Part shown: piece by piece, positions 6,073 to 56,600 of the stretch | Layout of the letters: each line of letters begins with the position of its first letter | How positions within the stretch are numbered: position 1 is the stretch's first letter | Assembly: GCA_905178155.1 (NCBI GenBank) | Contig: CAJINV010000001.1 | Coordinates: 5,536,757 to 5,600,756 of the forward strand | Source: Amoebophrya sp. A120 | Taxonomy: Eukaryota; Protista; Dinoflagellata | Direction of reading: 5' to 3' | Length of the DNA stretch: 64,000 nucleotides | Made by a program: the position numbers and the translations under genes | Notes under the pieces: model-generated | The model's database searches: none | What the model was told of the DNA's origin: nothing | Seen by the model: only the letters and a program-made list of their open reading frames with translations

Positions 6073-9000
6073 TCAGCATGTTCTTTCATCAGATTCGAGT
6101 TTTCCATTGTGGAATGATAAATGTCGCGAAAAATGTTTGTGAATGAGTCCAGGTTCCAATTGGTGGGACACACAAATGATGGTTTTAGTTTTGAAGTTTT
6201 CGAATAGAATCTCAAAAATTCTCCGTGTCTCCTCCGTTGTCATGTTGTTCGTGATTTCGTTAAGAAGAAGAATGTCGAAATCTGAATTCCGGTTGTTGTC
6301 GTCGTTTTGGATTGATGAATTCGCATTGTTGTTTTCCATTTCGGAGTTCTTGAATGATTTCTCCCCCTCTGCAACAATTCTGGCCGCCTGCAGCAGTTGT
6401 TGTTCCGAATAGGACAATGCTTCTGCATCATCACCCGGCTCGACGCTGGGTGAACTTTTGTGATCGTTTTCATTTTCCTCTTCTCTAATTTCTTTTTCTC
6501 GATGAAAAAAGGCGCGCAAAACAGCATGCACGCGGTCCGCAGGGAGATTCTTCTTTATGTTGAGGTTATACTGCACCGAACCGCGCAGGATGACCGGCGT
6601 TTGCGGCAGCGCGCGGATGCGGTTGGCGCTCGTGTTCTTGTACAGAATTTCGCCCTGCTGTGGCAGAACCAGGCCGAGCAGTAAAAGCAGAAACGTCGTC
6701 TTCCCGCTCCCGGTGCGTCCCGTGACTAAAATCTTTTCTCCTCGGCGAATCTTCAACGAGAGGTTGTCCAAAGCGGGTCTTGATAGGTTGCTTCCAAAAC
6801 CATCGGACGCCCTTCCTCCGGCCGCGTCCGTAGATGAGAATTCTCGCCCTGTGGTAATTTCTTGTTGGTAGCGCACCGTGACTTTCTTCAGCTGCACAAG
6901 AATGTCGCCTTCATGTGATGTTGTCAGATTTCCATCTGGAGGCAGCAAATCGAGGCCGCCGGCGGGCGAAAGTATTTTATCTTCGTCAAGTGACGAGCTC
7001 GATAGGCTATCTTGTTCTCCCTGTAGTTCCGCAAAAGCAGCGTCCCTCTTCGTAGTAGACATAACTTCAGACCTGCTCTTACTCCCTGCTCGTGCTTGGC
7101 TTGCTTCCTCCGTCAGTTGGCGCAATCGCTCCACACTGATCAATTGCGATTCCAGTTCCATTCCTTTTTGCGTTGAGTCGCGCAAAACTTCGATGCTTCC
7201 AATCACCGCCAGGGACAAGAGTGCGTACGTGCCATCGTTGACGTGCACAAAGTTTGTCACCCCGTTCTTCATCGCCAACAATTGCAACCCAGGGTACAAA
7301 TGGACCACAACGTGACAGAGAAATTGCAAAACCGCAAACCTCGCGCCGAGCCACCACGCGCTGGCAATCGTGAGAAATTGCGCATTCCCGGCTTCCCGCA
7401 AGGCCTGAAAAGTTTCCGTTGCAAACTTGTCCGCGTAGTTGAAAGCACGCAGCACCACTGAGCCGCCGCGCTCGCACTCCGCGAATCCGTGAAAGACCTT
7501 TGCGAGAAATTGCAATCGGCGGACTTGCGCTTTCCGTCTGACCGTGCGGACGAGCGTGATTGCACTTCGAAATTGGACGACAAGGAGAGCGATTCCGATG
7601 AAAATCGCAACAAAAGCGACGATACTGGACGTTTGTGTGGCGGGAAAAAGGTCCTCTGAGCTTTCATCTACTACTTGCGCACCGTTTATCATTTTTCCTG
7701 GTGAATCCTCATCTTTTCCAATAAAAGTCTTTGGGAAAATGTTTCCCACATCGATTCCGGCCGCCCCCAGCAAACTCTCCGCGCCGCTCTTCGCTTTCCT
7801 CACCACTTTGCTCAGCACGTAGTGGTGCGCGAGAAACGCGCCTAAAACCAATACCGACAAAACGCACAGGAAAACGGGCATATATGGATTGCAAAAATGT
7901 CTGGGTCTGGAAGAATCCGAACTTGTGATGCTGCATTTGGATTCCAAAAAAAACTGCAATGCATGACCAGCAAAGGGAATGCAGTTTTCGCTACGCGCAG
8001 AGGGCATTTGTCATGCGGAATAGGAATCACGGAGCCCTCAAAAAGTCTGTGATGCTAGGGCATGCATCACAGACATCACGGCCCATGCAAAACGTGCATG
8101 ACAAGTCTCAGAATCTTCCAGACCCAGACATTTTTACATTTGATAGGACAAGGAGGTACACCAAATCGGACATGGGGTTGTCGTCCAATTTGTCTACATC
8201 GTAAACATATGGATTGCAAATGTGTCTGGGTCTGGAAACTTGTAATGCTAAAAGTGAATGATAGACGCGCCGCAATACGCAGCTATGCATGACAAATCTA
8301 GTGGCTGCCATGTCTTACGTATTCCGCATGGCAAACTGCCTTTTCGCTTGACAGTTAAGAGGGCTCTTTCGTGCCTATGCAACGCAGATTCTCGAGTCAT
8401 GCCAGACAAGCATGACAGACTTGCATTCTTCCAGACCCAGACATTTTTGCATTTGATAAAACAAAGTGGTTCAGAATCCGGCCACTCGACTGCCGGTCCC
8501 AGAAACGGTGCAAATCCGCCTGCACCAAACACTTGTGGAACAGGTTGTCACCAATCCTCACCGCTGCCTTGTTTCCACCGCGGAGTTGCTGCGTCTCCGC
8601 GATTGCGAAAAATACGATGCCGGTGAAGGTCAAGGCGATGAAAATTTTCGGGAGTTCGTCTTCCCTGAATCTTCCGAAGAGAAAGTGTAGTGCGTGCGTC
8701 TCTTTCTCCCGGCTGCCAACGTACGTGAGCAAGACGATCCCGAGCTCCGCCGCAACGACGCTGAGAAGCAGACTAAAGAAGAGCACAATTGTGGTGAGAA
8801 ACCCAGCTTGACCGACGTACCAGTAGAGTGCGCGACTTGTGCTGTAAAGCTGGTCCACCGTGTTCTCGAAAACAGGTTTCTCATGCGTTAAATCGATGAA
8901 AGATTCCAACGATGATGTTGCACCGTGATCGGCGGTAATCGGAGAAGGTCGCGCTCCTGGCGATGTCGCGACGAGCGCAGTTGGTAATTCTTGATGTTCC

Positions 9001-16356: not shown

Positions 16357-17320
16357 GATGAACATTCGTCGCTGGTTCATATGCATAGAGGTGTCAACAT
16401 ATGTTCTTAAAATTTGTAAGTACTCAGGCACGCGTACATGGCAGAAACCACACGAGAAATTGACGGGAGAATTTGCACTAAAATCAAGGACTAATGACCA
16501 AACTCACATTTGCTTCGTGTATCGCCATAATAACGAAAACCGATTACTGGAGCGAGTAGGCATCAAATCGAGCGAATGGCATCTTTAGCCACATGATAGA
16601 TCGTGATCGCTTTTCTTGTCAGTAGGTCTTGGGCTTTCGGCTGCTCGAATAACTGTTACGTACACGAAGGTGGAGAGCGCCGGACCGAGTCCGAGTGGAC
16701 TTCTTTTAGACGATCAGACCGACAGTTCCACGATATCGAAGAATGGTCCAAAAATGAAAGCAGGGCTGCAGCCGTTTTCTCGAACATCTACTTGTTTATT
16801 AGTTGTCGCCTGGGACAGCGTCACCATGCAACACCCCGAGTTATTGGTCAGATGATAGATAACGCACAGGAGAACTGCAAGCCCAGTGTTTCAGTTTTTA
16901 GATGCGCACGGCTTCCGGCGTTTGTTAGTACGCGCTGCGTCTCAAGAGTCACAAATACAGTTCTAGAGTGTGCTGCTGTAAGTTCTAAAGTCACAAACTC
17001 GGCTTGCTACGAAAGACGTCAAAGACTGTGTTAGTGCGGTTGCTGCAGAAAAAGATGCTGTCGCAATATCGAAGAGATATTGAAGGAAAACCGAAGGAAA
17101 AGCGTAGCTCTTGTGGCGCATTGAAAAGCTAGCAGGTTGATTGCTACAGATGTTTGTGTACACAGGATGGCCTGTAGTAGATCATAAAGATAAAGGATGG
17201 TCGGTACATAATAAGGATATTCACCAGTAGGGCTAGGGTATTTCTATTTCGTGGCTCAAGTTTCAATCTCTACCATGACTAGTTATAAGTCAGAAAACCC
17301 ATTATTTAATGGTTTCCCGC

Positions 17321-17535
17321 AATAAAAACAAACAATAGAAACGAAAAACAAAAACAAATAATGGAAACGAAAAACGAAAACAAAGAATGGAAACGAAAAA
17401 CGAAAACAAAGAATAGAAACGAAAAACGAAAGAATGAGAACAAAGAATGAAAACAAAGAATGAAAACAAAGAATGAAAACAAAGAATGAAAACAAAGAAT
17501 GAAAACAAAAAACGAAAACAAAAAACGAAAACAAC
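17321..17535. repeat. A-rich minisatellite, 13-bp GAATGAAAACAAA and variants
   Basis: Direct inspection; perfect copies at about 17445-17510. Confidence 0.9.
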
Positions 17536-17607
17536 GAAGCGCAGCCAAAGTGACCAAGCTTCTAAGAGGCGAAACCTCCAAACGATGAGGCCTCGAAACG
17601 CCGAAGG

Positions 17608-18705
17608 AAGCCTCGAAGCAGCGAAGCCTCGAAGCAGCGAAGCCTCGAAGCCTCGAAGCAGCGAAGCCTCGAAGCAGCGAAGCCTCGAAGCAGCGAAGCC
17701 TCGAAGCAGCGAAGCCTCGAAGCAGCGAAGCCTCGAAGCAGCGAAGCCTCGAAGCAGCGAAGCCTCGAAGCAGCGAAGCCTCGAAGCAGCGAAGCCTCGA
17801 AGCAGCGAAGCCTCGAAGCAGCGAAGCCTCGAAGCAGCGAAGCCTCGAAGCAGCGAAGCCTCGAAGCAGCGAAGCCTCGAAGCAGCGAAGCCTCGAAGCA
17901 GCGAAGCCTCGAAGCAGCGAAGCCTCGAAGCAGCGAAGCCTCGAAGCAGCGAAGCCTCGAAGCAGCGAAGCCTCGAAGCAGCGAAGCCTCGAAGCAGCGA
18001 AGCCTCGAAGCAGCGAAGCCTCGAAGCAGCGAAGCCTCGAAGCAGCGAAGCCTCGAAGCAGCGAAGCCTCGAAGCAGCGAAGCCTCGAAGCAGCGAAGCC
18101 TCGAAGCAGCGAAGCCTCGAAGCAGCGAAGCCTCGAAGCAGCGAAGCCTCGAAGCAGCGAAGCCTCGAAGCAGCGAAGCCTCGAAGCAGCGAAGCCTCGA
18201 AGCAGCGAAGCCTCGAAGCAGCGAAGCCTCGAAGCAGCGAAGCCTCGAAGCAGCGAAGCCTCGAAGCAGCGAAGCCTCGAAGCAGCGAAGCCTCGAAGCA
18301 GCGAAGCCTCGAAGCAGCGAAGCCTCGAAGCAGCGAAGCCTCGAAGCAGCGAAGCCTCGAAGCAGCGAAGCCTCGAAGCAGCGAGGCCTCGAAGCAGCGA
18401 AACGTCGAAGCAGCGGAGCCTCGAAGCAGCGAAGCCTCGAAGCAGTGAAGCCTCGAAGCCTCGAAGCAGCGAGCCTCGAAGCCTCGAAGCAGCGAAGCCT
18501 CGAGGCCCCGAAGCAGCGAAGCCTCGAGGCCCCGAAGCAGCGAAGCCTCGAGGCCCCGAAGCAGCGAAGCCGCGAAGCCTCGAAGCCTCGAAGCAGCGGA
18601 GCCCCGAAGCAGCGGAGCCCCGAAGCAACGAAGCCCCGAAGCAGCGAAGCCCCGAAGCAGCGAATCCCCGAAGCAGCGAAGACCCGAAGCAGCGAAGCCT
18701 CGAGG
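17608..18705. repeat. 16-bp satellite CGAAGCAGCGAAGCCT, ~50 near-perfect copies then degenerating
   Basis: 16-aa (48-nt) periodicity in the overlapping ORFs; the unit is a dimer of related 8-mers. Confidence 0.98.
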
Positions 18706-18739
18706 CGGGGCAGCAACGTGCGAGACGAAACCGCGAAGC

Positions 18740-32278: not shown

Positions 32279-35200
32279 TCACTGATTGACCTGCTTTCCA
32301 CATTTCCGATGCAGAAGCCAGTCGTCAACTTCTGCGAGCCTTTGGAGTTCCAGCTTGTGGAATTTTTTCCACAAGTCCAAAGTGGGCGAGCTGCACCCGT
32401 GTGAGAAGCAGTAAGCCTGGAACAGATCCAGCCAAGCGTACAGCAAGTCTTCCTCGACCAGCTCTTTTTCCCTGTACTGCTGCCGCGTCGCAGCATAAGC
32501 GTCAACCATCGCTTTCTGGACGTCGTCGGAGAGCTCAAAGACCGGCGAGGCGTCTGTGAAAAATTTCTTTGGGTAAGCGGAGCATGATACACACAACAAA
32601 TTCAGAATTGCCGCAAAGATTTTTTTGTCTGTAGTCGAAATCTGAAAAAAAGATCTATCCAAAGAACTTCGGATCATGGTGATTGGCCCGACATCTAGCT
32701 TCAGCAATGAAACTAAAATACCTGCTGAATTTTGCTTCTTCTCCCTTGGTTCGGTTTGTATTCTGTTCACCTCGTGGAAGTAGAAGCGCAGCTGATCTTA
32801 TCAAAGAAAAAAAGTTCGTCACGATCACTCATGCGCATTCTTGCAATACAAAAACAAAATTGTTTGTCATGCGTAAAAATGCATCACAGCCAAACTTCAT
32901 TAGGGATTTCCCTAGTGTTTCTGCAATACAAGGAAAGTTTGTGATGCTGAGAAAATTTGTAATGCAAAACCTGCAAGTTAGTGACTGTGGCAAACTTTTT
33001 TCTCTCCATAGATCTTCGATCTTCTGCGCAGATGATGAAGATGTCGATCCAATTATTTCCATCTTCTTCTCCTCTTCACCAGAAAGTTCCATGTCTGAAG
33101 GTGTTTCGTGAGCAGTTACTGCCGCGCTACTCACTGGCGGGATAAGCACCGCCTTGCCCATGGCCAAGCAGCTTTTCGACCCGGGGTTTTTCACCCCCGA
33201 AAGAAATGCCGAGCGGGAGTCTTTGGAGAACACAATTCCCTGGGCCTCCGATGCAAACTCCAACTCGTAAAACCCAAAGAAGATCGGGACTTTCTGCGTC
33301 CGCAACACCTTCGTCAGCACCGCGGCATTCACGACGGCTTCGTCTTTGAGTTGCCCGGACTGCAGTTCCGTCTCGTCCACGACGAGCACCGAGCCGGCGG
33401 CGAGCTCGAGGAGTCCCGTCTTCATTTCGTCCGTCTCGGGGTCCTTGTGGCCGCGGAAGGGCGCGCCGTTTAACCCATCGAGACTCGCGTCCAGGTGATA
33501 CATATCAAATGTAAAAATGTCTGGGTCTGGAAGAATGGAAGGCGTGTCATGCTTGTCTGGCATGACCCATGATGCTTGTAATGTATGATCCAGCATCACA
33601 GATTTTTGGAAAGCTTCCTGATGCCATTTCCGCATGACAAATGCCCTCCTCGCGTAGCACAAATGTGGCTCCTCTTGCTGGTCATGCAATACAGATTTTT
33701 TTAGATTCCAAAGTTAGCATCACAAGTTCCAATCTTCCAGACCCAGACACTTTTACATTTGATAATACACGTACGGGTGCACCCTGCGCAGGGTGGTGGT
33801 GATGTTTTTGACGGAACCCGGAAGCGCGGAGAGTGCGGACGCAGTGTCGGAGGTGGTGCCATCATCTTCCTCAGCCGCGAGCACGAAGTTCATCGGCGTC
33901 ATGCCCAGCGGCGACTCCTCCGTTTGCTGCTTGCTCTTCGTGGAGCACAAGGCCATCAACAGGTACTCACTGAACAACCTGCCGCTTTTTCGCATGATCG
34001 TTGAGGAGGAGCTTGAAGAACTGCTGCTAGTAGTATGTACGATATTATCGCCGATGTACTTCAACGCCGCTTCGCGCAAAGGTGCCAATCGTTCCTCGAC
34101 CGATTTCTTGTCCACACTACCACTCCTCATCGATTGAAAGTGCCGACCGATAAAATCTATCGGCAATCGCTGGTTCTTGTGAATGACCTTCAGCACGTGC
34201 AGCCTGGGTTTGCTTCCAGCTAGCGAAACGACCGCGACAACGTCGACGACGTCATGGATGGCAACGCCGGCCTCCTCTTCTTGGGAGTCAGCGAAAATGA
34301 GCTCAACGCACTCTTCTCGACGAGACGCGTGCAGCTGCTCCTGTTTTGTTGGGGTGGTTTTGATGTACCGTGCTGGCATTGACTTGATTTCGTTGTTTTT
34401 CTTCACTAAACAGCAAAAAGTACTCGCAGATGCAACAAGAATACCGGTTGTACAAAAATTTTACGTTGTTCACCACAAAAAAAAATCACTGTGTTTACCT
34501 CATTTTCCGCGCCCACGTCCTGCCCCAGCAAACCCCCCTCCACTGGGCTATCTTCCCGCGTTCGTTTGTGCTTGGATTGCTGCAACCCTGCCTCGACCCA
34601 CCGGCTTTCGTATGGGACGGGAATGGCGTCACATGTTGTGCGGTCCCAGTAGTATTCTTGTTCTTCCATGCGGGGGTCTTGCACCAGCTCCACACTGCCC
34701 GTAAAATTCGCCTGGACGTTCAGCTCAGGGGTCACCATTTCATCTCGGTACTTGAACAGCGTGAAGCCTGTGCGGCTCTCGTTCGACCGGAAACCGTTGA
34801 AAATTTCCGCCTCGCTGCCCTTGTTGATGACAAACCCCCGGTAGCGTACCAGCTGGCCATCGCGCGAGTGCTGAAAAGAGAAGATCGGCAGGTATCAAAC
34901 GGAAAAATCCCCCCTCCCCATATCGAAATGGAAATCTGTGATGCAGGATTTGAGGCACCAAATCGACTTGTCATGCTAGAAGGCCAAGAGCCGCAGTCGT
35001 GGTCCCTTTTGCAGGCAATTTGTCATGCTGTTTCCCACTCTCAGCTGCCTCCTATCATTCTGAAGATGCAAGGCTCCCCCACGCCACCCAGCACTACAGT
35101 CCGCATCTTTTCCCGTGTAGCATGACAAAGCTGATTTGTGACAACAAATCTGCATCACAGATTTCCGTTTCGATATGGGGAGGGGGGATTTTTCCTCACA

Positions 35201-35735
35201 ATAGCAGGAGGTCGAGCCTCTCCCGGTGTCCGGGAACGACTAGCTCCGGCGTGTCGGTGGTCGTCAGCTCGATGGATTCTGGGGGTCGAGACAGACAAAG
35301 GTTCTTTGAAGAACATTTGATTCCGACAGGAATGAACAATTGTAAGTGCTGTGTGCTTGTAGAACTTTGTTGACAACAAGAATGCTTGATAGGGACATGA
35401 ACAAATGATCACTCGTGGCTCGTGCAGCGAGAGCGACCGACACAAAATAAACAAGCAAGCTACGAATAGATGTTTACTAAAACAAACTTACCCCACTTCC
35501 CTTCTTTCAAAAACGCTTCTTTGGCCGCATCCGTCTCGAGCAATGCGTACTGCTTTTCGAAGTCCGCGTAGAGCGCTTTGAGCAATCCGCAGGTTGGCCC
35601 GCCTCCCACGATCTCCTCGCAGAGCGGCGGAGGGAGAGAAGATGGAGGCTTGGTGTCAAGTGTGGTGGCGGTTTGCGCTTCTTCCGTTGTCTTCAGCCGC
35701 TTCGCGGAAGACTCACTTTCGTCGACCATACCCAT
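32279..35735 (-). CDS. MCMBP: Mini-chromosome maintenance complex-binding protein (spliced)
   Basis: LVRYRGFV...KYRD N-domain; LDGLN...KDPETDEMKTGLLEL...LVVDETELQSGQL...QKVPIFFGFYELEF; C-terminal WKKFHKLELQRL; three introners plus GT-AG introns. Confidence 0.85.
32799..33010. mobile_element. Introner, family C, inverted relative to 15757 (212 bp)
   Basis: Perfect DR GATCT; spliced KIEDQLRFYF. Confidence 0.95.
33503..33764. mobile_element. Introner, family A, inverted relative to 7883 (262 bp)
   Basis: Perfect DR ATACA; ~31-bp TIR; spliced HPYVYHLDAS. Confidence 0.95.
34893..35203. mobile_element. Introner with long C-rich TIR (311 bp)
   Basis: TIR GGAAAAATCCCCCCTCCCCATATCGAAA(T/C)GGAAATCTGTGATGCAG; perfect DR GCAGG; spliced LDLLPIFSF. 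Confidence 0.95.
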
Positions 35736-41621: not shown

Positions 41622-44600
41622 CTACCCCCCGCCAAACAGCGCCGGCGTGTCCCAGCCTTCCACCGCTTCGCCCGGCAGCGGGGGGTGGTCCTGGTCGACC
41701 TGAAAGCGAAGGAACTCGGCGCCGACGGTGGAAGTGGGTAACTCCGCAGCCAATCCGCGGACCTCCTGCAGAAAATGCCGCAGCTGCGCCGGTCCGTCGG
41801 GCACCGCGGTAAGCTGCTCGCGCATCGACTCGAGAAGGCTCGCGCCGGGGAACAAACTTCCGGCAAAGAGATGCAGCGCCGCCAGTTCTGGCCGCTCTCC
41901 GTCCTTCTCCAGCGCCAAGTCCCGCGGAGTCCTCGGCCGCTGCTCTGCTTTGTTGGTCGGCGCGAACAACCGAAGCGGTCCGAAGGCGCCGGTCCAGCCA
42001 AAGACCTGCTCCGCCTCGAAGTTGCTCACGAGCAGTGCAACCTTTCCCCCGGGGTCCGTGTCGATCTCGAGAACGAACTCCGGCATCTTCGTATGCAAGA
42101 AAAAAACTGTATAAGTGTAACTCTGTCATGCAGAACATCCAACAGAGTTACGCCTGTCATGCCAGACAACCATGAAGTCCTCTTTTCACTTGTGTTTTCC
42201 CTTAATACAAGTTACACATGACAGGTTGTCTCTGTCATGTAGAGCAAATTTGTGTTGCTGTCAGACAAAGAGAGTTCTTACACTAACACAGTTTTTTTCT
42301 TGGATACTTCGCTGCTTTCGCAAACGGATCGCATCCCGGCGCCGCGAGTGTGCACGCAAAGTCAAGGGTCGCGAGCACGGTGATCTCCGAAGTGCTTCGA
42401 CCCAGCGTGCGGGGCAAGTCGACGAAAGCAACCTATATTTTTTCGTAGGAGAATGAAAGTGTCCTTGAAATGTAGAAAGTAGGTTTGTGGAGATTTCGGA
42501 AGCTGGCTGGCAGGTAGGAGCAGCTGAACAAGCAGGCACTTCTTGCGCAGCTAGGCATAAAGCCATAAACACAACTACGTATATCAATCTGGAAGTAACA
42601 GAGGTCGGCAGGCTCTGGTCATGCACGAGCCCGCCACACATCATTTCTGAAAAGTACGCCCATAGAAAGCCACGCACTTACCTGGGAGAAGTCGCCGTAC
42701 TTTTTTCCAGCGTTGCCGGGCTGCTTCAGCCACTCAGCCAGGTCGCTTAATCCGCTGGAGACTTGTGGCGCTGTTGGCTGCATTGACGCAGACTCCTCGA
42801 CATCGCGTTCCTCCTCGAGCTCCTGCTCGAGCTCTCGCTCATGCTGGTCGCTGCAGTTCGCGCGGTGTCCGGGTTTTGCCAAATTCGGCGCGACCTTGTT
42901 GACACGGTCAAGCAGCTTCTCGGCGATCGGGTCATGGTTCTGTATCTCGTGGCGGAGCCGTTTCTGCGTTAACAAGGTAAGCTTCTCGGGGTTCCGGGGA
43001 TTTCCGTACAGGTCCGACAGCAGCGCTTTTTCGGTCTCCACCCCCGCGTCCGCGTAGAGCTCAAGGAAGCTGGCTAAATTACTGTCCTGCGCCTGTGCCT
43101 CGGCCTTGGCGTTTCGCAGAAGTCTGCTCTTGCGGATGCACAGTGCGCTTTGACTGACAAGCGGGCCCATCAACCTTCCACACTCTTCTACCGTGTTCTT
43201 GCTATGCATTGCAAATACGCCAGAGTCAGGACTTTTGTGATGCAAACTTCATCTGGATGAGGGAAAGAACACCTGTAAGAGCAGACACGTACGACAAGGT
43301 TTATTGAGAATAACTGCTCCTGCGTTTCGCGCACTAAAAATTACGTCTTCGCATGACAAAAGAAGCTCTGCCTTTGTTGATGACCAATAGACCAGAGATA
43401 TTTTCCAGAATGCCAGAGAAGCACCACGCGTTCCACTTTTCCAGGCCTGAACACATGATTTGCATTTGATAATTCCTTGCCCACTGCAAGACTGCGTCAA
43501 TGTCCTTTACATCCAAGTCCGCCTGCTCGACGGTGCCCGCACTGGAAGCCGAAGCTGGCGCGTTTCGCAACTGCTCCAGTTGGCGTCGACAGTTGTCGCG
43601 TTTTTTGGTCAGGGAGCCATCCGCATCGCCATCGTCCTCGATCATTTCGTCGAGGCTTTTCATCGTTCGTGTAAGCTTAGCCATGTCGCCCTCCTTCTTC
43701 ACCTTGTCTGCGTTCTTGACTGCATCGAGCTGCTTCGCCACTTCGGCCGCAGCGATGAAGTTCACGATCTGCCCGCGGCCGACCTGGCGGGCGCGAAAGC
43801 AGGTCTGGCGGAGCTTGTCGAACGTCATGCCCTTTCCCAAAGTTACAGCGCACTTGCAATTTGGGGGCAGCGCGTCGAAGTTGGACCCCCGCAGATTCTC
43901 GTCGCTGATGTACAACAGGCACCCCTTCATGCTGGCCACATAAGGCGACTATGCATTGCAAATAGGTATCTCTGGGTCTGGCTGGATGCGAACTGGTGAT
44001 GCTTCAATAATGGATGACGCAAACTTCTGATGCTTAACATTCGGATGCAAACTTGTGATGCAGACTTGGGAAGAACGGGCAAAAGTCTGTGTTGCCCTAT
44101 CAGCAAGAGAAGACAGGCGATCTTTGATCGCCAGGACACTGCATTTCCCATGTAGACAAGAAGGTGCGAAAAAGTGCATTGCAGGTCCTCTACAGACGCA
44201 AGATATGGCACAACGCACTTCTCTGTTTTCTCCCAGACAGAGACCAGTGACAACATATTTCCAATTGGTAGCGACTCACTGAAAGCCATTTCTATGCCGC
44301 TACGGAACAGCACCCGGCGCTGGTGCTTCTCGTCGAAAAAGACCGCGGCCTTCGCTCCAGTTGTTTCTCTCAGTTTCAGCCAGGCAGCGCAAAAGTCTCG
44401 GCTTGACTGGTCCAAGATGAGTGCGCCGCCATCTAGCAAAACGTCGAAGGCCTGGAATTCCCCGCCCAAAAGTTGCAGCACCTGGGCCGTTACATCCTTC
44501 CCAGTGGCGAGCTCCTCGCAGCGGCTGTTTGCTTTTTGTCGCAGCCGCAAAAGCTGGAGGCCTTTGGTTGCCAAGCCCGGCAGGTTGCGCTGCTCAATGG

Positions 44601-47600
44601 TTGGCGGCGCCACTACCTTGAGATCATCGGTTCCCGCAAAACCCAAAGTGACGCCCTTGCTCCCCGGCGCATGCGGGTCCTTTACCAGGTCGCCCGCCGT
44701 TGCGCGAATGCTTCTTGGAAATTGGCGCGCCTCTTTGGGAAAAACCCGCTTGCTCAGAAAGAAGTCCACGACGGCCATGCTTTTCGAGAAGACCTTCACG
44801 ACCTTGCGGAGGCAGAGCTGGTCGTCGAGGTTGATCTGGTGCAGGTGCTGGAGGTCGTGCGCGTAGCTGTAAAAATGGTCACCCAGGACCTCCATCCACT
44901 TGTCGTAGTACCGCGCGCCCTCGTGGTCAGGTAGGCACTGGAGATCATCGAAAACCTCGCGCAGCTGGTCCTCTTCGAGTCCGCGGTGGTAGTAGTGCGC
45001 GACAGTCAACATAATCCCGGTGTCCGGATGGGCGTACTCCGTCCGCTCCGCCGGCTTTCCCTTGGCTGCAAAAGGAACCGCCATACGATGCGAGGGCCGG
45101 CCAAGGTGCGCCCCGTACTCGACCCAGTGACGCTTGACCAATACCGTCCGCAGCACTTCGTGACTAAGGAGTCCGCAGTAGATCCGCGCCAGGTCGCGCG
45201 TCTCGTCATCTGGTAGCCTGGCGAGGTGTTCCGTGGGATCTTTCTCCAGCACGGCTGCCTTGAAATCTTCGCAAATGTATTGACTGTTGACGTCATCGAG
45301 GTACCGGAACCTTGGCGCAATCTCATCCTTACAAACCCGCGAGGCGACATCCTTCTTCAGCTGCTCGTAGCATTCGTCCTGTTTGGCATGATCGAGCAGT
45401 CGCCAGGGCAAGAAAAAAGCGCTGGTTTGGCTCTTCCTCCGAATGATCTCCTCGTTCGCGGCGGTGTCCACGTGCACGACGTCGGGGCCGAACCTCTCAT
45501 CTTGCAGGTATGAGATGCCGAGTTCCGATATCCCACAGAAAAAGACCGACAGGTCATATTTGTAATGCAAAAATAAATACACAGGAAAATCTGTCATGGG
45601 CGAGGCCATAACATCCTGTTTAGGGCACGCAATACAGATTTTTTTGTCTATTTATTTTTGCATTACAAATATGACCTGTCGGTCTTTTTCTGGGGGATAT
45701 CCGAAGCAAAGCGCAACACGTCCATGGCGGCCCGGTACCTATCACAGTGAAAAATGCCCCCCACCCCTGAAATTGCAACAATTTGTGATGCGAAGTTTCC
45801 AAATGAAAGCTTTTTGTCATGCATGAAAGGAGTAAGAATCTTTCTGATGCAGATTCTAGTCGTGTTTCGCATCGCTTGCATGACAAGCACCGCTCTTGCT
45901 GGGATCTTTTGCAATACAAACTTTTGCTATTCACGATCGGAAATCTGTGATGCTGATACACGCAAGAGGGCGAATGTTTCATTTGGAAAGATTTGCAATA
46001 CAAATGCTTTCAAGTTCGGGGGTGGGGGCATTTTTCATTGTAATAGTACCGCTCCTCACCTTTGGCAAGTGTGCGCGGCTTCCCAATCGTGTACATGAGC
46101 TGAGTGCGGGGTGCAAGAATTTCGTCGCTTTCGTCTAGGTAGTCTCGTGTTTCATCTTCCAGCAAGCAAAAAATCTCGGTCAGTGCCGCCAACGTTGCCT
46201 CGTCACCGCGATGCTTTTGTTGCCCGACGGGTGCACCAGGACTAGCATCAGCATCTTCGATCCCGGCGACCAGTTCGATCACCTTGTTCTTCAGGGACAT
46301 GCAGTCGGACTATCCACGACAAAAATGCCTCTCCGGTATAGCGACCTCGCTCTAACGTAAAGTCCAGGGAGCAGTAGGTGAAGAAAACTAATCATACCAA
46401 AAACTCCTGCTGCTCCCTTTGGGTAAACAAATAGCACTGCGCCACTGCAAAGCCACTGTAGGTGCAACCGCGTGACGCGAAAGCGCCTGTCACTGATGCA
46501 TGTCGGTCTGGTGTGCTTTTGCGCGTGTACGCGAGTGCATGCTTTTGAGCGTATGTGTGCGCTTTTCCGACAAAGTCAGACAGACGGCAACTCAAGATCG
46601 CTATACCCAGTTGTATGCTTTCTGCCTCGGATACTGCTGGGGCCATTACCAAAACGCCTTTCTGCGTGCGCAGCTCTCGAAGGTCGGAAAGGAGCTCAGC
46701 CAGTTCGTCTGCGCTGCGCTCGTGGTCTCTACGGAAGAATAGCGACTTATCGACCTTAAAACAGCCCCCACGCCAGGTATAAAAATTTTTTGCGCTTTTG
46801 TTTCCAAAACCACAGTATACTCTTTTTTTCGTATAATTCCGCCTTGATAAAGTAAACGCAAAAACTCATGCGCCGACGAAGATGATGCAAATCATAACGG
46901 GATTTATTTTGGGCACATTGTGCACCGTGGTGGGCCAGCGTGTTGCTGCGCCATTTATTTATTCCTGGGGAACAAGGGAGCTGATTTGAATCGGATAAGG
47001 CACCAACCTCCTCCGAAGCCATCCGCCGAGTTTATGCTGCCAGTCCTTCGCGTTCGTCGCCAGCTGCGAACCCAGAACAATAGCCCGCGGTAGGCATTCC
47101 GTGCCCTTTCTCGACGAGAGCAGAAGCACAACGGCCATGATGACGCTGGTTTTCCCTAGTCCCATGGAGTACTCAAGCAGTCGGCTCTCCGTGCCTGTCA
47201 CAAACTCCACCGCGATTCTCTCCTGCAAGGCCCGCACACGCAGGTCATTTTGCACCTCAAAAGCGAGCACTTCCGGCCATTGCTCCAGATCTGACCAACC
47301 CGTCTCCTTCAGTTCTTGCAGAAGCGGGTCATCCCATTCTCCCTTCCGCATTTTTCGCAGGATCTGCCGCGAGCGCTGGAAGTTGCGAGCTGCGATCAAA
47401 AACTCTCCAATGCTGGTTCGCTGACGAACAGAGAGGGAGAACTGCTGCTCTTCTGTGCCTGCCGTCGGGAGGCAATCAAGGTCGTCACACCACATCCCGA
47501 TTAAAGACGAGCGCGCCGCGGTGGATACCAGACCACACTTCAGAGCAATCACATCGAAGATACTCTCGTACTCTTGCCGGACTTCCTCCCATACCCGGTC

Positions 47601-50600
47601 CATTTCGTTAGCGTAGTCTAGTAGAGCCTTTTTTGCGACCTCCAGGTACTGTGCGCGAAGTTCTGGCCTACTGCTCAAAGTGTTCTCTTCCTCCTGTCGT
47701 TGAATTTGCAGCGCAGCGTCTTGACTTTCGTCTAGTTCCTGATGAAGAATTTCGGCCAGCCCCCGGTATTCCTCCTTGACAGTGACGGGCGGCAGCTTTG
47801 CAGGTATTTGTGTCCTCGGCGAAGTTCGATCAACTGCAAATACGTCTGGGTCTGGGAAGAAGTTATTATAGTGTTTTTAGCCTCTCCATATATGAGAAGC
47901 GGACATCTGTATTACCTGGTCGGGCATGACACATTATTTCATCTTGAGGGATTTTGCACAATGAGAAACTACCATAAGAAGTCGTATTTTTGCATGACAA
48001 AGTTCGTGGCGGTTATTTTCGGCTTCATGCCTGACAGATAATTTAGTATTGGTTTATTCCAAACGCGCAATACAGGTTTGCAGTCTCCCAGACCGAGACA
48101 TGTTGGCACTTCATAACTACTGCCACTCGCCCCGGTTTTCGAAGTCGCAGAGCATTTCTGGTTGAATGCAGTTCCGCTAGAGGTGGCGCTTTTGCTCATT
48201 CGTCGTCTTTTTCTAGAAGGCGATGATCCAGCAGCAGGCGACTCGCTAGAACCGGACAGACCGCGCAACTCCGCGAGTGTAGGCTTTGCGTGTGTGATCC
48301 CATTGCTGAGCCCGTGCATCGCGCGCTGATTGTGTGACCCCATTGAAACAGAAAGTTCTGAGCCCATACCACTCACTGATTCGTTGTGAAACAAAAAGTG
48401 TTGTCCGGCTTGCGAAGTCCCAACATCTTCTTTGGAGTCGCCAAAAAATGCGTCGACTTGTTCGTGCTCAATCCGCTCCTTCGCGCGCGCAAACGCCTCT
48501 TCGCGCGCTTTCGCATTTTCGGGCGACGCTGGCTTCCTGGGCGCCGAGCTTGCGGCCTTCTGCAGATCGCGGAACCACTTCGACAGCTCCTTGTTTTGCC
48601 GCCAGCGGGTGACGAGCGTGTTCACGCTTGCAGCAAGTTGCGACCCTGTCTCTATCGGCGCGTGCAACAGAAGGGCGCCCGTGACTCGGGGGGGAAGATT
48701 CTTTTCCGTCAGGATGGAGGGCGGCTTTTTGCTGAAACTGTCCTTCACTTGCTTCGCCAATCCGTCCCGCAGTAGCTGCTCCGCGAACTTTTCGGGTGTG
48801 AGGGAGGTTGTAGTCGAGGAAGCTGCAGGAGCCTTTTTGTTTCCCTTGGCACGTTTTCCGGACACAGGCACAGTTTTGCTGTCGACTTTTTTCTCCGGCT
48901 CGTCCACCCCAAAGTTGATGTTCTCGAGTACAGTAATGATTTCTTTTATCACAATGAAAAATGCCCCCGCTCTAGGACTAGTTCAGCAGAGCAGTGGTGC
49001 ATTCGGGTTCGCCTACGGAGAATGCGACGCATTTGTCCCTCGGAAATCAAAATGTCAGGCAGCTCAAGCAGGACAGACATACCGATCGTCTAACTAGCGT
49101 GTACCGCCGGGCAACATAACTTTGCTTCACTACTCTGACCTAAAAATTTGACACGCTAATCCACGCATGGCGGCAAGTGATTCTATAGGGACTTTTGCAA
49201 TGCATAAACTAACTTCCACGCGCCGGGACGTGGGCGTTTTTCAGTGTGATATGTTTCCGGAGTTCTTCTTCAGAATACTCGTGAGCAGCCGGAACGTCAA
49301 ACTTGCGATGTGCAGGCGCCGCAGGAAGTTTCGTCGGGCGGTTCTCCCCACCGTCTTTGAAAGATCGCAACCAGAGCAGCACCCTGAACATCTTGCGAAA
49401 GCTCTCTGCGTTCCGAGGGTAGTCCAACTGCAACCGCGCGAAAAGTGTCCGCAGCCGCAGGGTGCTCGTGCCGGTACTGGCAAGCGTCAGATCGTACAGC
49501 TGGATAAAATATGCATTGCAAATATGTCTGGGTTGGAAAACCTGTGATACTGAATGAGCATGATAACAATTGCAGCGGTTGCATTGGCAGCTAAGCAAAG
49601 CATGACAAGTTTTGGGAACGCTCTTCGATGCCTAGCACGCATTGGTATTCCAAATTGGTTTTTTGCATGACAGAGGAAGCTGCTCTTTTGCTACTCAAGC
49701 AACACTTGCTTTTCAGGAATGCGATACACGCATTCATACGCTCCACTTTTTAACACCCGAGCATATTTATTTTTCGCATTCGATATAAAAAAATCAGCAG
49801 CACCAGAATGCCCGCCTTCCTCGTCGACACATAGCTCGCGACGCCGCGTTTGCAGCTTTTCGACCAACTCCGGAATGGGCGCCAGGAGCAGGCTGGCGGT
49901 GCTGGCATCTTGCTCGTCGCTGGTGTCCAGTAGTAGCTGGCCGCCGAGCGTCGTCCGGGCCTTAGCGTCGGCAATTATGCTTTCCAAGTCGTCCTCGGCC
50001 GGCCCTTGGTCCTCGTCAATAGCACCGTGTGGCGAGTCCGGTAGCACTGGAGACCAATGGCGGAGAACAGACACATCCTGCCCGTGGTCACTTTCTACTT
50101 TTATTTTCCCGCCAGCAACGAAATACGCGACGGCCCCGCACATTCCGGCCACGTTCTCCAGGGTCACCCGCTGCAGCTATCCTGATTAAAAGTGCTCCCA
50201 CCCGATAGTCAAGATGCCAATTTTGCAACACAAATGCAGACATTTTGCGGATCACGCGGCCTTAAAAGCTCCTATATCTGGCGTAGCGAAGGTTAGCAGC
50301 AAGGATAGCCGCATCACAACACCATCAGCTTATCCTTTCTGATGCTGCCATCCTGATTCTGTAAGAAGGATATTTGTGTTGTGATGCTAAAGAAGAATAT
50401 AATATTTCTTTGTGTTGTTGTAAGACGTCTCTGCATGTAAGAAGAATATTTGCGTTCTTGCGCCTCTGTAAGAAGGATATTTGTGTTGGTGTAAGACGGA
50501 CTCCTGCTTGCAGTATCACAAATTCCGATTATACACGACTGCAAACGCTTTTCTTCTTGATGAGGATACACATTTCCAATCTCTCTGTAGACACACTTCT

Positions 50601-53600
50601 GCATGACAGCTCTGGGGTGGGGACAATTTCGCTTAGGATAGCAGCTCTTCCGGTGTCATCCGCTCAATTGGGGGCCGGCTTTCTACTCCGACCAGGTACG
50701 CCCGAAGGTTTCTCCCGTTCACGCGCGAGGCAGAGACGTCACTCAACTCCCGGGGGCGGCTCGCTTCCAAACTGTTCGAACCCACGCGACGGAGGGTTTT
50801 GGTGATTTCGGCGAAACAAAGCGACACAAGGAACCCAATCGCCGGCGTCAAACACAGGGGCTCAACCGGGGACATCCACACCCGGACCCGGCTGCGCTCG
50901 CTTCTGGCATCGGGGGCGCCCGCTCCTCGCTGCGGGGAAAGCTTCAAAACCACAAGCAGGACCCTGCGCGCGTCCTCGATCTCCGCGCCGCCGAGCTCCA
51001 CACCGTGGCCGGCACGCAGCAGCTGGAGCCCTGTCGCCGTGCCCGTTAGCCCGGTCAGCCTGTCGGGGAGAAGGCGGGACGTCAGGAGGGACAGGTAGGC
51101 CAGGTAGTAGGTGGCGGCCTGGCTCCTTGCCCGCGGTCGCAGCGCTCCCAGCTCGTCGACGACATCGATCACGAAGTAGCCCCGAACATCATCCAACATC
51201 AACGTCGTTCGCCCGCTCGCGTTATCAAATGCAAATTATATGTCTGGGCATCGAAACTTGTAATGCTGAATGGTCAAGATTGAGCACGCCTTGAACTTGA
51301 AGTGCAGTGCAAAATGACAAATTTTTCAAACGCTTTCTGATGCGCAGCACGCATTACAGGCTGCGACTTTGCATGACGAGAGTGTCGTGGTGCTACTTTT
51401 GGTTCTTTTGCTCCTTTTTTATGCAATACAGATTTTCTAGAAATGCGATCATGCAATACAGATGCAACCTTTCCAGACCCAGACATATTTGCAGTGCATA
51501 CATGTCCCGCTTCGCCTCGGCATCCGGCAGCAGCAGTACACGGTTGCTGCTGGCCCCTGCTTCATCCCCGGGCGCTGCAAGAACGAGGCCGCTCCGCAGC
51601 CCCTGCAAAGTGCCTAGCCTCTGGTCTTCGGAGACGCACCGGCCGTCGAGCTCGGGCACGCTTACGGCGTTCCGCTTTCTTGGTCCAGCGCCTCCTGCTC
51701 CGCTTCGCGCGATGTCCCCCACATGGAACGATATCCCGGGATACTGTGGAAGCTCCACGATCAGCAGTGGCGTCTCGTCTGCGACACCTCCTTCGCGCTC
51801 GTCCGGTGCAGGCGCATAAACGTGTAGCAGCTGGCGCGCCGCCAATCTTGAAAAAACCCGCTCGTGCAACGTTCTCACGGCTTCCGCTTTCGTTGATAAC
51901 AGCCGCCGGTTGGTTCGCAGTTCGAAAAGGGTGCCGGATTCTGGTCGGAATTCGAAAGCTGCCTCACCTCGTGCGAAGCCGTCGGCCTTGAAAGTCCTCG
52001 GGCGAAAGCTGATTACCAAATCCTCCGGGTCCGCGCCGCTGCTTTTGGACAGCCATAGAGAGTGCCCCGCGCTGATGTCGGAAGGCTATCAAATTCCAGA
52101 ATGTGTCTGTGTCTGAATGCAGCTTTCATAAGCATCTATTTCACGATCACGGGCTTTGTAAATTGCCATGCAGGGTCCAAACATATGAGCATACATTTCA
52201 ACTGCTTTTATACAGCCGTGAAATGTACAAATATGTATGAGTCCTGCTTTAGAGTAAAGTGTTCCAGCCCGGGGGTTCGAGCGGGGTGTCCCGACCCTCG
52301 GGATTCGGGATTTGCAGCACGGCCCGTCCCGTGTTGCAAAAAGAACCCGAAATCCGTATTTTTTGCAGCATGGCCTGCTCTGTACTGCAAGTCGGGGCTC
52401 GAGTGGAGTGTACCGTCCCCCGGTTTTCGTGATTTGCAGCACGGGCCAAATAAAAAAAGCCGATACTTTGCGGTTTTTTTGCAGCACAGCGAGGGCCATG
52501 CTGCAGATCGGGGTCTGAGCGGAGTTTCTCGTCCCCTGATACTCGTGATATGCAGCAAGGCCCGGCCCGTGCTGCAAAAAGAAACCGATCTTTCACAATT
52601 TTTGCAGCACGGCTGGGGCTGCGCTACAAATCGGGGCTCGAGCAGAGTGTCCCGTCCCCCGGGAATCGTGATTTGCAGCAGGGCCCGAGCCGTTCTACAA
52701 GAAGAAGCAGATATGCCGGAATTTTTGCAGCACGGACCGGGCCGTGATGCAAATCGGTGTTCGGCCGGAGTGCCCCGTCCCCCGGGACACGTGATTTGCA
52801 GGTACTGCAAAAAGAAGCTGATATCGCAAAAACAAACCGATCATACTTCTGATTATTTGCAGAACAGCCCGGGCCGTGCTGCAAATCGGGGCTCGAGCGA
52901 AGTGCCCCGTCTCCCCGGGACTCTGATTTGCAGCACGGCCCTGCCCGTGCTGAAAAAAGAAGCCGACATTCCGGATTTCTTGAGGAACGGCGGGCCGAGC
53001 TACAAATCGTGGCGTGAGCGGAGTGTCCAGTCCTCCGGGCCTCCTGATTTGCAGCAAAAAGATCCCGACATTGCAAAAAGAAGCGCACATTTCAGAACTT
53101 TTGCAGCACGGCCGGGGGCGTGCTGCAAATCGGTGTTCGAGCGGAATGCCCCGTCCTCGGGGACTCGTTATTTGCAGCACGGCCCGGCCCGTGCTGCAAG
53201 AACAAGCAGATACTGCAAATCGGAGCTCCGGCGAAATGTCTCGTCCCCTCGGGCCTCGTCATTTGCAGCACGGCCCGGAACCTGCAGTAAAAAGAAGCCG
53301 ATATTCAGGATTTTTCGCAGCACGGCAGGCCGTACTGCAAATCGGTGCTAGAGTGGAGTGTCCCGTCCCCCGGGACACGTGATCTGCAGAACGGCACGAG
53401 GACGCGTGCTTCAAAAATACGAAGGCAATATTTCAGATTTTGCGCAGCGCGGCAGACTGCAATCGCTGCGCGCGCCTACCAGACGCCAGCCTATGCGCCC
53501 GCACGACCGGCACCATAGCCGCGCGCTACATCTTGACACCCCCAGACACAGACACGCCCGCACTTGATACCGGTAGCCCGGTTTCTCCATTCCCCTCGTC

Positions 53601-56600
53601 CTCTGGCTGCTCGGCTTGGTCCGGGTCGGCGATTTCAGCAGCTGCAGCTTTGTCGACCTCCGCCCCATCGCCGAACACCCCCGCCCCGTCGACCAGCACT
53701 GCCCTTCGTCCGCTGCGGTCCTCGATTATCACCGGTGCTGCATCTGGTTCTGCTTGGCGAATCTCGAAGAACGTGCCCAGATCGTCCACCGGGTGGCTGC
53801 GAAAGCTCTGGCCGTCCCCACATGCTTCGAAGGAGAGGGCTGCCCCGCTGAAGAAGTCGCGAAAGCGCTGGTGGTCAGAGATGCTGCGTGGCAGGCTCTT
53901 CACCGGTGAGCCGTTGACCCGGAAGACGCCGGCGACGACGTCAACATCCAGCACATACCCACCCGGTGCTATCAAGTGCAAAAGTGTCTGGGTCTGGAAG
54001 AATGCATGTTTGTCATGCTGGTCTGGCATGACTCTTCAATCTGCCATGCACGTTACGCAAGAGCAACGCTTTTATGTCATGCAGAAACGCGCTTTGTCAT
54101 GCAGAGTGGGCAACACCTAGAAGCTCAGAAACTTGTCATGCCGGGCCAGCACTTGTGGCCCCACCATGATACGCCACCCATCGCCACAAGGTTCCAGACC
54201 CCGACACGCTTGCAACCCATAGACGCCGCCCGGTACCAATTTGCTCCGCCGTCGTGGTACTTGCGCCAGGCCTGCCGCCGCGTCGGCTTTCCCAGTCCGA
54301 CACGCTTCCAGCTGGTTCCCGCGGACGACACCACCGCCGCCACGCCCTGCTTCCAGTAGCCCCGCACGAACTTCGTAACGCCCTCGGACTTTGCGGCCGC
54401 GGCCGCCCGGTGCAGCGCCGGCGCAAGGCGGTCCGCCAGTCGCTCGGCGAAAAAGTAGGCGCCGCGCCGCAATGGACTCCCGCCGTCCGACTCCAGCAAG
54501 CCACTACCACCGTAATCGACCACGATCGCCCTGAACGTCAACCACTCGCGAAGATTCTCGGCCACGCCGTTTATCATTTTTGAAACGGCCCCCCACAGTG
54601 TAAACAGAACAACTCTCGAAGTGCCAGTGCAAGATAGGCCTCTCAGAGGCCTGTCTGGCACTGGCACTGATATTTCGAACTCAGAGGCTCTGAGTTCGAA
54701 ATAAACTTCGAACTCGAAGCGCTACACTTAAAGTTACGCTCTAGCAGCAGGCGACGCAATTCAAACCCAATTCCGCTCGCTACAACACAACCTTTCTTGC
54801 GTTGCAGCTACCAATGATGAAAAAATAGCAATTACGACACGCCTCTTGGCGCTTCCGATACACAAATATACAAAGATCAAGATGAGAGTCCCAAACTAAA
54901 CCCATTAAACCCCGAAAACCCTTGCAGCGACGGACCGCGACGGTACTGAAGAGACGAAGTCACGACGCCCGCTGGTGAAGGCAAGTCGGATCAGGTGCGA
55001 CGTGCCGGTAGCTCATAGTGCCCCTCCTAGCTATCCTAGACCTAAATCTATACCAAGGAATGGAGACCCTTCCTCCCGAAGCTGCTTGGTGCCACTAGGC
55101 CCCGGGGCGTTTCCGATGAAATCGAAATAGCAGCCCTAATCTTTCTAAGCCCTAGAACCCTAGCTGCGACGGCCGCGGAGCCGGGTCGTTCGTTGTAGGA
55201 AGAAGATCGTAGACCGCAATGGATGTCGCTACAGGAGAGAGATCGCTACGTACTCAATTTCATGCACTCAACATCATGAGTCTATATGTAACTACGCCGA
55301 AATGTAAGTACTCAACGATAGAGAAGAGAGGCGCCAAGAAAAATCGCCGGGAAAAGCAAACTGCTTGGCTATAAATATAATAGGGCCCAATGAAAGAAGA
55401 TAAGAAACAGAGTAAGAGAATGACGAAGCCGTTTGAGGAAAGCGCTAGATCATGCGAGTGCTCTGATCTATCCAGGAGCGCTTCCTGCCAGTTCCAATGC
55501 TTGCAGCGGTGCTTCCGATATAAAAAGAAAAACTGTAATCCGGAGCCCTAAAACAAACGCGTCAAATTCTAAACCCTTGCAGCGACGGTCAGGGACGGGT
55601 GCATGCTTGATGGAAGAAGGCACGTCGCCCGCAGTTGAAGGCAAGTCGGAGCCAACAGGTGGACGCGGCGGCGCGCGTGTCTTTGCCGGGCCTATGTAAT
55701 CTTACGCCTAGACCTATCCGTGGCGGAAAAAACACCCGGATGAGAGAAAAGCTGCCCGGGGCCAGCAAGTTGGGCCCCGAGAGAGCTTCCTTCTGCCTGG
55801 GGCCAGTTGGGCCCGGGGAGGTGGGTTCTTCTACTGCGACGCCTCCGGTCTGCGCCGTCAAATATAAACAAAGCGAACCACTACTGGGACAAGGGTGGGG
55901 GGCCGGGTTTCATGCTGATACTTTTCGAAACTGCCCCGGCATGCTGCTGCTGGTCCTCTGGGTGTCCGATAAGAAGCGCGGGGTCTTCTGCGAACGTCAA
56001 GGAGCCCGCGACCGCCACATCCAGCACACGCCTGCGATGCAGCTCGCTGCCCGCGTCACCCGCACCGCGCAAATCGTCGAGCCACTTGATTGCCGTCCTC
56101 CGCACCAGCATGAGTAGCTTTGTCGCGTCCGTCTTGCGCGAGGCCGGGCTGTGCTCGAACAAGTGGAGGCCGACGAAACCGGACACATAGAGCAGAGTCG
56201 TTTTGTCCCATGCGTTTTTCGAACTTCCCAAGCGCTTCCGTACCTCTCCAGCAAGGTCGTGCCGCCGGGTGCTTTCCGGGTTCACCAGGTCGCGCGACGT
56301 GGTGCGGGCCCACCGTAGATTCTGCTCGAAGTTCTTCTGGTCCTCCGCCGCGGCTCTTTTCCCGCTCCCGCCGGTAGCAAACTGCACGCCATCGAGAAGT
56401 CCCGCCGTCTTCTTCTCCGGAGCCGCCTCGGACTGCGGAAATTGCGTCTGCTGCAAGAGTAGCTGTGCATCGCGAAGGCTGACAGGGTCCCCAACCTGCC
56501 AGAGGACCAAGCAGACGAAATGCGCAACGGTCTCGCTGTTGAGATTGACATCGCCCCGGCCGATCATCCCGCACAACCGCGCCAGCTGGTGCTTCGAACC

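Follow-up and report, generated by a model that had tools for sequence, protein, structure and literature searches.

Elements and host genes in the window

The stretch of DNA analysed here, 64,000 nucleotides (nt) from the dinoflagellate Amoebophrya sp. A120 (contig CAJINV010000001.1, positions 5,536,757 to 5,600,756 of the forward strand; hereafter the window, numbered from its first letter), carries 22 elements of the form TAT…ATA, each with terminal inverted repeats (TIRs) and a flanking direct repeat (DR) of 5 bp, and all of them lie in minus-strand host genes. They were identified by self-comparison of the window and a scan for end motifs (a TAT-N7-AAA start, the reverse-complement end and the 5-bp DR), and the count combines 20 elements analysed jointly with two long ones (52087-53569 and 54572-55920). 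The DR is perfect in 13 of the 22, and its copies match at 2-4 of 5 positions in the other nine. Judged from sequence, these elements very likely match the introners described for A120 by Farhat et al. 2021 (PMC7789003), who reported an inverted-repeat (IR) signature, short DRs and a hairpin model and left the splicing route unexplained. The elements and the question of their splicing are already in print, and the feature under study is a real part of that published system; our concern is the orientation of the elements and the manner of their removal from RNA.

Three families, A, B and C, have members in both orientations. An ABC-transporter gene contains A7883 (7883..8145, DR matching at 3 of 5 positions) and B8208 (8208..8458, perfect DR), both in what we designate orientation 1, as are C15757 (15757..15962, perfect DR) in a GT47 exostosin-like gene and B30912 (30912..31163, perfect DR) in a CLC channel gene. 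Orientation 2 is represented by C32799 (32799..33010) and A33503 (33503..33764), both with perfect DRs and both in an MCM-binding-protein gene, by B53970 (53970..54221, DR 3/5, no read cover) in the giant gene introduced below, and by a family A element of 4713 bp, A57100 (57100..61812, perfect DR, no read cover). The MCM-binding-protein gene also holds a further TAT…ATA element with a perfect DR, e34893 (34893..35203).

The first-pass annotation had placed every host on the minus strand, which the domains, the colinear homologues over 41.8-63.8 kb and five CT..AC joints (GT-AG on the minus strand) bear out. ABC_tran and GT47 domains lie on the minus strand in the hosts of A7883/B8208 and C15757, respectively, and Voltage_CLC, MCM_bind, DUF3638 and DUF3645 domains do so in the remaining hosts. 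The largest host, a DUF6606/DUF3638/DUF3645-type gene on the minus strand (41763..64000), extends past the window, holds 15 of the elements and can be aligned colinearly to seven long homologues between 63.8 and 41.8 kb. What appear at 41763-64000 as four or five minus-strand genes are one giant gene with 15 introners, whose homologues measure 2300-4760 aa.

Opposite orientations of homologous elements

Interior sequences were aligned after 45 nt had been cut from each end, so that the TIRs could not drive the result, and local scores were compared between forward and reverse-complement alignments. Family A members scored 21 forward against 134 in reverse complement for A7883/A33503, and 23 against 96 for A7883 and the two arms of A57100. 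B8208 and B30912 are co-oriented (112 against 16), whereas B53970 is reversed relative to both B30912 (18 against 116) and B8208 (19 against 62); the two family C elements, C15757 and C32799, are likewise opposed (20 against 104). Shuffled sequences reached maxima of 23-31. The opposite orientations claimed for the three families were thereby confirmed, as the named pairs align only in the sense claimed. Their description as independent families holds for the distinct interiors and falls short of full independence for A and B, which represent two interiors with one end type because they share nearly the same 30-nt TIR. The assignment of the element at 57100 to family A in orientation 2 was also upheld, although not as a whole short copy: position 57100 opens the left arm of the 4713-bp element that ends at 61812, and the arms (57100-57188 and 61645-61812), when joined, reconstitute an A element that lacks about 18 central bases; between them lies a cargo of 4456 nt.

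A scan for the TIR pattern extended the sample to at least 172 loci, on contigs sharing one public accession prefix; the following counts refer to the loci listed. They contain 252 distinct elements with a median length of 262, among which 205 have a perfect 5-bp DR (a figure raised in part by a detector that favours perfect DRs), and the distribution of DR lengths peaks at 5 with none at 6-9. Some are up to 97.7% identical to window elements, so that the families are repeated across the genome, and summed depth over elements is very high in the contigs of one run (X5). One copy on another contig (L060:2932-3237), 97.7% identical to window 45740-46045, fits recent transposition. Host strands for 74 of these elements were called with a codon model trained on window exons, and with 19 window elements these make up a set of 93, for which the strand calls of the larger sample are computed rather than RNA-based. 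TAT, seven nt and AAA recur at both IR ends in the window and in the profile of the 93, a motif that the detector in part imposes. Relative to the host, family A showed no significant bias of orientation (21:15, p=0.41) and family B divided 13:5 (p=0.10); none of the 200 edges in family A and the 61 in family B was inconsistent with the assignments. By these computed calls, both orientations are common in the further loci as well.

With their TIRs, a target-site duplication (TSD) of constant length and short copies without coding capacity, the elements have the features of miniature inverted-repeat transposable elements (MITEs). They are likely non-autonomous DNA transposons, to judge from the TAT…ATA TIRs and the 5-bp target duplication.

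Removal from RNA of the element and five further bases

Evidence at the RNA level comes from four runs of one sample (X1-X4), available as assembled contigs whose RNA status is a guess; we took them as spliced minus-strand RNA because the contigs skip five CT..AC (GT-AG) introns. In each case where an RNA joint spans an element directly, the omitted length is that of the element plus five bases (element+5): 257 = 252+5 at B30912, in three of the four runs, and, in all four, 217 = 212+5 at C32799, 267 = 262+5 at A33503 and 316 = 311+5 at e34893. Single contigs of 2.3 kb omit three elements along with GT-AG introns, again in four runs out of four. X1-X4 left 42.7-50.7 kb essentially uncovered. 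All four joints lie at perfect DRs, and for imperfect DRs the figure of five derives from reading frame and homology.

Removal of the opposite member of family C is likely as well, from contig coordinates and depth arithmetic. Record 6 of X1 ends at 15751, the base before the DR of C15757 (which is the reverse of C32799), with 89 letters remaining; bin depths in X1 give zero cover inside the element, and the 89 letters are found at the contig's depth in the next bin. From this we infer that family C elements of either orientation are removed, one orientation being seen directly; the C pair, half of it indirect, constitutes the RNA support for both orientations. In addition, a piece of an X1 contig starts exactly at 8459, at the end of B8208, with the preceding 82 nt unplaced, which is suggestive only. 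Among the joints listed, none fell at A7883, and no exon was covered in two raw RNA runs (X9 and X10), whose 103 and 3 reads, all partial, lie on element sequence. If retained, seven of the eight named elements would bring in-frame stops into the message, and the remaining one would shift the frame. Contigs from X5 continue across the boundaries of the elements (at 7883, 8458, 15757 and 15962), as expected if the DNA keeps the elements.

Record 6 of X1 also omits 14065-14488 bar 160 letters, probably as two ordinary introns; the genomic minus frame there is stop-free despite the omission.

The reading frames of the hosts extend the element+5 rule beyond the RNA joints. Tested against +3 and +4, removal of element+5 yields open frames of 1919 codons spanning A7883 and B8208 and of 1090 codons spanning C15757. 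In the giant gene, 3253 codons are open from 63262 to 42620 once 14 elements (each with +5) and one GT-AG intron of 88 nt, whose acceptor was chosen among six as the frame-keeping one, have been removed. At the two long elements (52087-53569 and 54572-55920), taking +3 or +4 instead leads to a closed frame after no more than tens of codons. Frame does not discriminate among +3, +4 and +5 at e34893 and e42092, the former being known as +5 from its RNA joint. The exons flanking the 4.7-kb element match adjacent parts of the same homologues, none of which is matched by the cargo. Among 190 elements of the larger sample with enough flank, sequence is coding-like on both sides in 77 at +5, in 4 at +3 and in 3 at +4, and the element+5 lengths of the 252 are spread evenly over the three frames (95, 77 and 80). 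The earlier proposal that element+5 restores the frame is therefore sustained by long two-sided minus frames and by the four RNA joints, with frames and homologues speaking for the rest.

Insertions show a phase bias (p about 1e-6): of 99 cases, 55 have the first DR base at codon position 3, 31 at position 2 and 13 at position 1, where a strand-symmetric target profile predicts only 42:32:26.

Splice signals and structure at the element ends

A GT-AG register at element+5 is available in one of 20 window elements examined, and a GT/GC-AG register in nine of the 93 (three in the antisense control) and in none of the five RNA-covered elements. The ends thus depart from the GT/GC…AG form of U2-type introns, and GT/AG was shown not to be required for removal. 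Use of cryptic canonical sites, one outcome that the first-pass annotation had said would overturn its reading, is excluded as the rule for the ends, since the RNA-covered copies offer no GT/GC-AG register. At e34893 (34893-35203), a GT..AG register exists solely on the plus (antisense) strand, and annotation could be misled by it into a canonical call on the wrong strand.

The profile of the sense 5' end equals that of the reverse-complemented sense 3' end (n=93), and asymmetry between arms tied to host sense gave nothing significant (best position 4, 27:14, p=0.06). In 60 of 93 elements read in sense and in 58 of 93 read in antisense, a branch-like hexamer, CAT[GCT]AC, occurs at a distance of 35-49 nt from the 3' end; it could equally be a transposase-binding repeat, and the five canonical introns displayed no clear branch consensus by eye. 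Two of those five RNA-confirmed canonical introns begin GTAT. Folding predicts a terminal stem in both orientations for 81 of the 93, with z values of -6.0 and -5.2 for single folds of the C pair; the base of the stem consists of three A-U pairs, followed in about half of the copies by a mismatch. Within the sense stem, G·U showed no excess over A·C (77 against 86, in 85 elements), and folding energy did not differ between sense and antisense (51/93). Rfam at gathering threshold returned 0 matches over the window, and thus no group I/II or other curated catalytic RNA.

These observations bear on the earlier proposal that removal is guided by the TIR stem and the DR instead of donor, branch or acceptor motifs. 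The ends are indeed not canonical and the stem is widely predicted; the exclusion of motifs does not follow, because symmetric TIRs and sub-terminal repeats offer the same motifs either way, so that orientation independence leaves donor, branch and acceptor motifs in play. Orientation symmetry alone is no evidence that the spliceosome is bypassed. The role given to the DR is also doubtful, since the +5 rule holds even where the DR copies agree at no more than 2 of 5 positions, which makes DR-guided ligation questionable; DR identity looks dispensable from the sequences, and the data place the cuts by their distance from the TIR. The further step to a structure-guided or non-spliceosomal route finds partial support: its non-spliceosomal part overreaches, and an unusual, hairpin-guided route had already been proposed (PMC7789003).

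Proposed removal by a spliceosome positioned by the terminal repeats

We consider that the cut is likely made by a modified U2-type spliceosome positioned by the symmetric TIR, a reading to which we assign a probability of about one half. An element inserted in either orientation, as seen in the window and computed for the other loci, would present UAU-N7-AAA at its 5' end and UUU-N7-AUA at its 3' end, as the sequences do in both directions, together with a predicted terminal stem. Exactly element+5 would then be removed from the RNA, as seen for four copies and as suggested by arithmetic for C15757 and by frames and homologues for the rest, with no call for GT/AG. The nine imperfect DRs suggest that a constant spacing from the TIR ends, and not pairing of the DR copies, would set the cut. 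In the probable register, to which the evidence points weakly, the intron would take in one base ahead of the 5' UAU and four bases beyond the 3' AUA; it would accordingly start N-U-A-U-C/G, a degenerate donor in which the +2 U is preserved and which resembles a donor minus its first G. Catalysis would be spliceosomal, with a putative lariat as product.

The hints on register are few. At e46748, a proline found in six of seven aligned homologues is kept only if the cut follows DR base 3 or a later base, the other 11 of 12 ambiguous residues being uninformative. The codon model and the direction of mutation give no decisive register apart from a hint at DR base 5, where the upstream copy has the A/T allele in four of four informative mismatches. 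AG occurs at DR bases 3-4 in 18 of 135 cases against 11.5 expected (p=0.04) and 6 in antisense, and in the set of 93 the corresponding counts are 15 sense and 4 antisense. All nine predominant non-canonical motifs of A120 in Table S4 of PMC7789003 have T at +2, although this may depend on the aligner. A120 retains U2, U4, U5 and U6 and nearly all spliceosomal proteins, while its U1 small nuclear RNA (snRNA) went undetected (PMC7789003). Weak as they are, the register hints lead us to prefer a TIR-guided modified spliceosome, for which Fritillaria, discussed below, offers a precedent.

Several observations weigh against this preference. The AG hint is slight, with about 87% of cases lacking AG and another flanking position reaching 19/135, and the excess is lost once 288 tests are corrected for. 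Whichever register is chosen, the bases at the start or the end of the intron are essentially unconstrained, which a spliceosome normally does not tolerate. The last 30 nt of the element are predicted to be paired. The direction of mutation at DR bases 2-4 yields no consistent register among 24 imperfect DRs, and there is no sign of selection on the stem at the RNA level, given the lack of a G·U excess and of any sense/antisense difference in energy. The presence of a spliceosome does not discriminate, because the canonical introns need one anyway, and the RNA evidence comes from assembled contigs of a single sample with guessed RNA status.

Alternative routes of removal

The strongest competitor is a separate non-spliceosomal machine, either a structure-guided endonuclease acting with an RNA ligase or a system like that of Euglena, which would read the TIR stem and cut both strands at fixed offsets summing to 5 nt; this is the route of the first-pass annotation without its DR pairing, and we regard it as a serious possibility that falls short of an even chance. 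It is consistent with the dispensability of end dinucleotides, with the prediction of a stem for either orientation in 81 of 93 elements and with one rule across lengths from 171 to 4713 bp. Non-conventional introns of Euglena need inverted motifs at fixed offsets from the junction (PMC12501133) and are reported to exit as circles (PMC11282704), and the failure to detect U1 snRNA in A120 (PMC7789003) points the same way. Against it, neither enzyme nor product has been seen, the stem base of just three A-U pairs runs into a mismatch in about half of the copies, G·U is not favoured over A·C, and the weak AG excess and the N-U-A-U start favour a spliceosome. A fuller version, which we hold more tentatively, would make this a second, non-spliceosomal mRNA-repair system in which a ruler-type endonuclease/ligase acts on any pre-mRNA stem of the form UAU-N7-AAA…UUU-N7-AUA, irrespective of orientation and over sizes of 170 nt to 4.7 kb. 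It is equally tentative that such a system would remove the stem and exactly five flanking bases of any sequence, at tens of thousands of sites; were it true, transposon insertion and target duplication would be undone at the RNA level.

Two further explanations appear highly improbable, and to a like degree. One is that the joints are artefacts of template switching by reverse transcriptase, prompted by a hairpin and a short DR without regard to orientation, the elements staying in the mRNA or being bypassed in translation. DRs and secondary structure are a known recipe for false non-canonical junctions (PMC4176328), all four joints lie at perfect DRs, and the data are cDNA-based contigs. Such an artefact is hard to reconcile with single 2.3-kb contigs that skip three elements together with GT-AG introns in all four runs, with the stops or frameshift that retention brings to all eight named elements, and with conserved-domain frames that are open and colinear over 3253 codons, including DRs matching at 2/5 and the 4.7-kb element.

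The other is removal at the DNA level, an excision, programmed or somatic, in which one DR copy is lost with the element and clean templates are left for transcription. Its appeal lies in TIR and DR as the signature of a DNA transposon, in the strand symmetry and in the lack of a stem signal at the RNA level. However, the contigs of X5 (a run whose kind is not on record, with an even depth of about 43) cross the boundaries at 7883, 8458, 15757 and 15962, and no element-skipping joint appears among the X5 joints listed, with the limit that contigs drop rare variants; loose ends in the RNA-like runs, moreover, show other element copies attached to the flanks.

Cryptic canonical GT/GC-AG sites in or near the TIR and DR, used in both orientations as in the introners of Polarella and Aureococcus (10.1101/2020.10.14.339549), have in their favour that precedent, the nine of 93 elements that do have such a register and the DR/IR organisation of 15% of A120 canonical introns (Farhat, PMC7789003), but their chance is close to nil, as the four RNA joints lie exactly at element+5 without a sense GT/GC-AG register and 84 of the 93 have none. 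As a general rule they are refuted by the RNA joints and the register counts; use by a minority of elements could hold.

Relation to known systems

The likeness to the A120 introners of PMC7789003 extends to the IR (TAT, seven less-conserved bases, AAA), a DR of 3-5 nt (5 bp in the legend of Fig. S19), a mean length of about 240 nt (median 262 here), co-oriented gene blocks, inconsistent splice dinucleotides, RNA-seq support and the proposal of unusual splicing. As there, the elements of the window are absent from RNA with non-canonical borders, at four joints and at one further site by arithmetic, in one sample. The paper differs in leaving the position of the borders unknown, and term searches of its text and supplement found no mention of element orientation relative to the host; a fixed element+5, dispensable DR identity and gene cargo of kilobase size are not stated in the sections covered. 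Literature and term searches (PMC7789003, PMC9860276 and PMC12130899; outside their scope were figures, some supplements and subscription papers) found no statement on the orientation of Amoebophrya elements.

The introners of Polarella glacialis and Aureococcus anophagefferens are likewise TSD-flanked and transposon-like, form introns in both orientations and show phase bias (10.1101/2020.10.14.339549). They differ in keeping GT/GC/GA 5' sites and in recruiting splice sites from constrained TSDs, whereas here the DR is almost without sequence constraint and 84/93 elements lack a GT/GC-AG register. Every class of them is biased to one orientation; here, family A has no significant bias.

Euglenid non-conventional introns (PMC12501133, PMC11282704) share MITE-like inverted ends, DRs that blur the junction, the lack of GT-AG, coexistence with canonical introns and an inverted motif whose distance from the junction is constant. 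They belong to an unrelated lineage, for which circular products and mutational dissection are available, and their motif is N3CDG…CH'GN5-6|R; judged from the profiles, that signature is absent here, where the ends are TAT…ATA with free flanks.

The MITE-derived introns of Fritillaria borealis (PMC11282704, PMC13326754) have the same TIR and TSD origin and non-GT/AG ends genome-wide, and an adapted U2 spliceosome is reported to remove them. Their ends are mostly AG-AC or AG-AT, in a TAC exon context, and the 5' end of U1 is conserved, in contrast to the undetected U1 of Amoebophrya.

Four constraints are apparently unreported: both orientations work, removal always takes element+5, the sequence and identity of the DR seem irrelevant, and kilobase-sized cargo is tolerated. 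Any responsible machine must read the symmetric TIR alone and measure from there. If the route is non-spliceosomal, this would mean a genome-wide mRNA endonuclease/ligase system; if it is spliceosomal, the spliceosome concerned would no longer depend on either terminal dinucleotide.

Further elements, cargo and other features

The remaining elements all lie in the giant gene. Near its 3' end, e42092 (42092..42306) has a perfect DR and is followed by e43203 (43203..43471, DR 3/5) and by elements at 43950..44270, 45529..45699 (nearly palindromic) and 45740..46045, the last three with perfect DRs; the element at 45740..46045 has the sole GT-AG register at element+5 among the 20 examined. Beyond these lie e46748 (46748..46997, DR 2/5), an element with worn ends (47828..48115, DR 3/5) and another at 48947..49251 (DR 4/5). 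The perfect DR of the element at 49510..49785 is without any G, so that a GT/GC-AG register is impossible there. An element of 463 bp with a perfect DR (50178..50640) and one with a DR of 3/5 (51223..51500) precede the two long elements, at both of which the host frame needs +5: that at 52087..53569 (1483 bp, DR 2/5) contains an array of repeats of about 123 nt, and that at 54572..55920 (1349 bp, DR 3/5) includes in its interior short palindromes (54620-54703) and a duplication of 80 nt (54916-54990 / 55571-55650).

The 4456-nt cargo of the family A element of 4713 bp (57189..61644) takes the place of the approximately 18 central bases, and its edges show no visible duplication. Its minus strand is coding-like throughout and resembles a gene fragment with IPT/TIG domains, with four or five frame switches, one stop and no recognised intron. 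It looks like a Pack-type capture of a piece of host gene by gap repair. A six-frame Pfam search of the interior of the 4.7-kb element found no transposase match, protein searches with the cargo (longer proteins only; viral contigs) returned no match, and blastn of the cargo against the loci listed (at least 172) likewise gave none, so that a parent gene was not found there. A search with the ABC host protein at E<=1e-20 also produced no match.

Upstream of the GT47 gene, 17270-19900 consists of long tandem arrays with units of 13, 8/16 and 22 nt, and strong strand skews also mark positions 1-4000.

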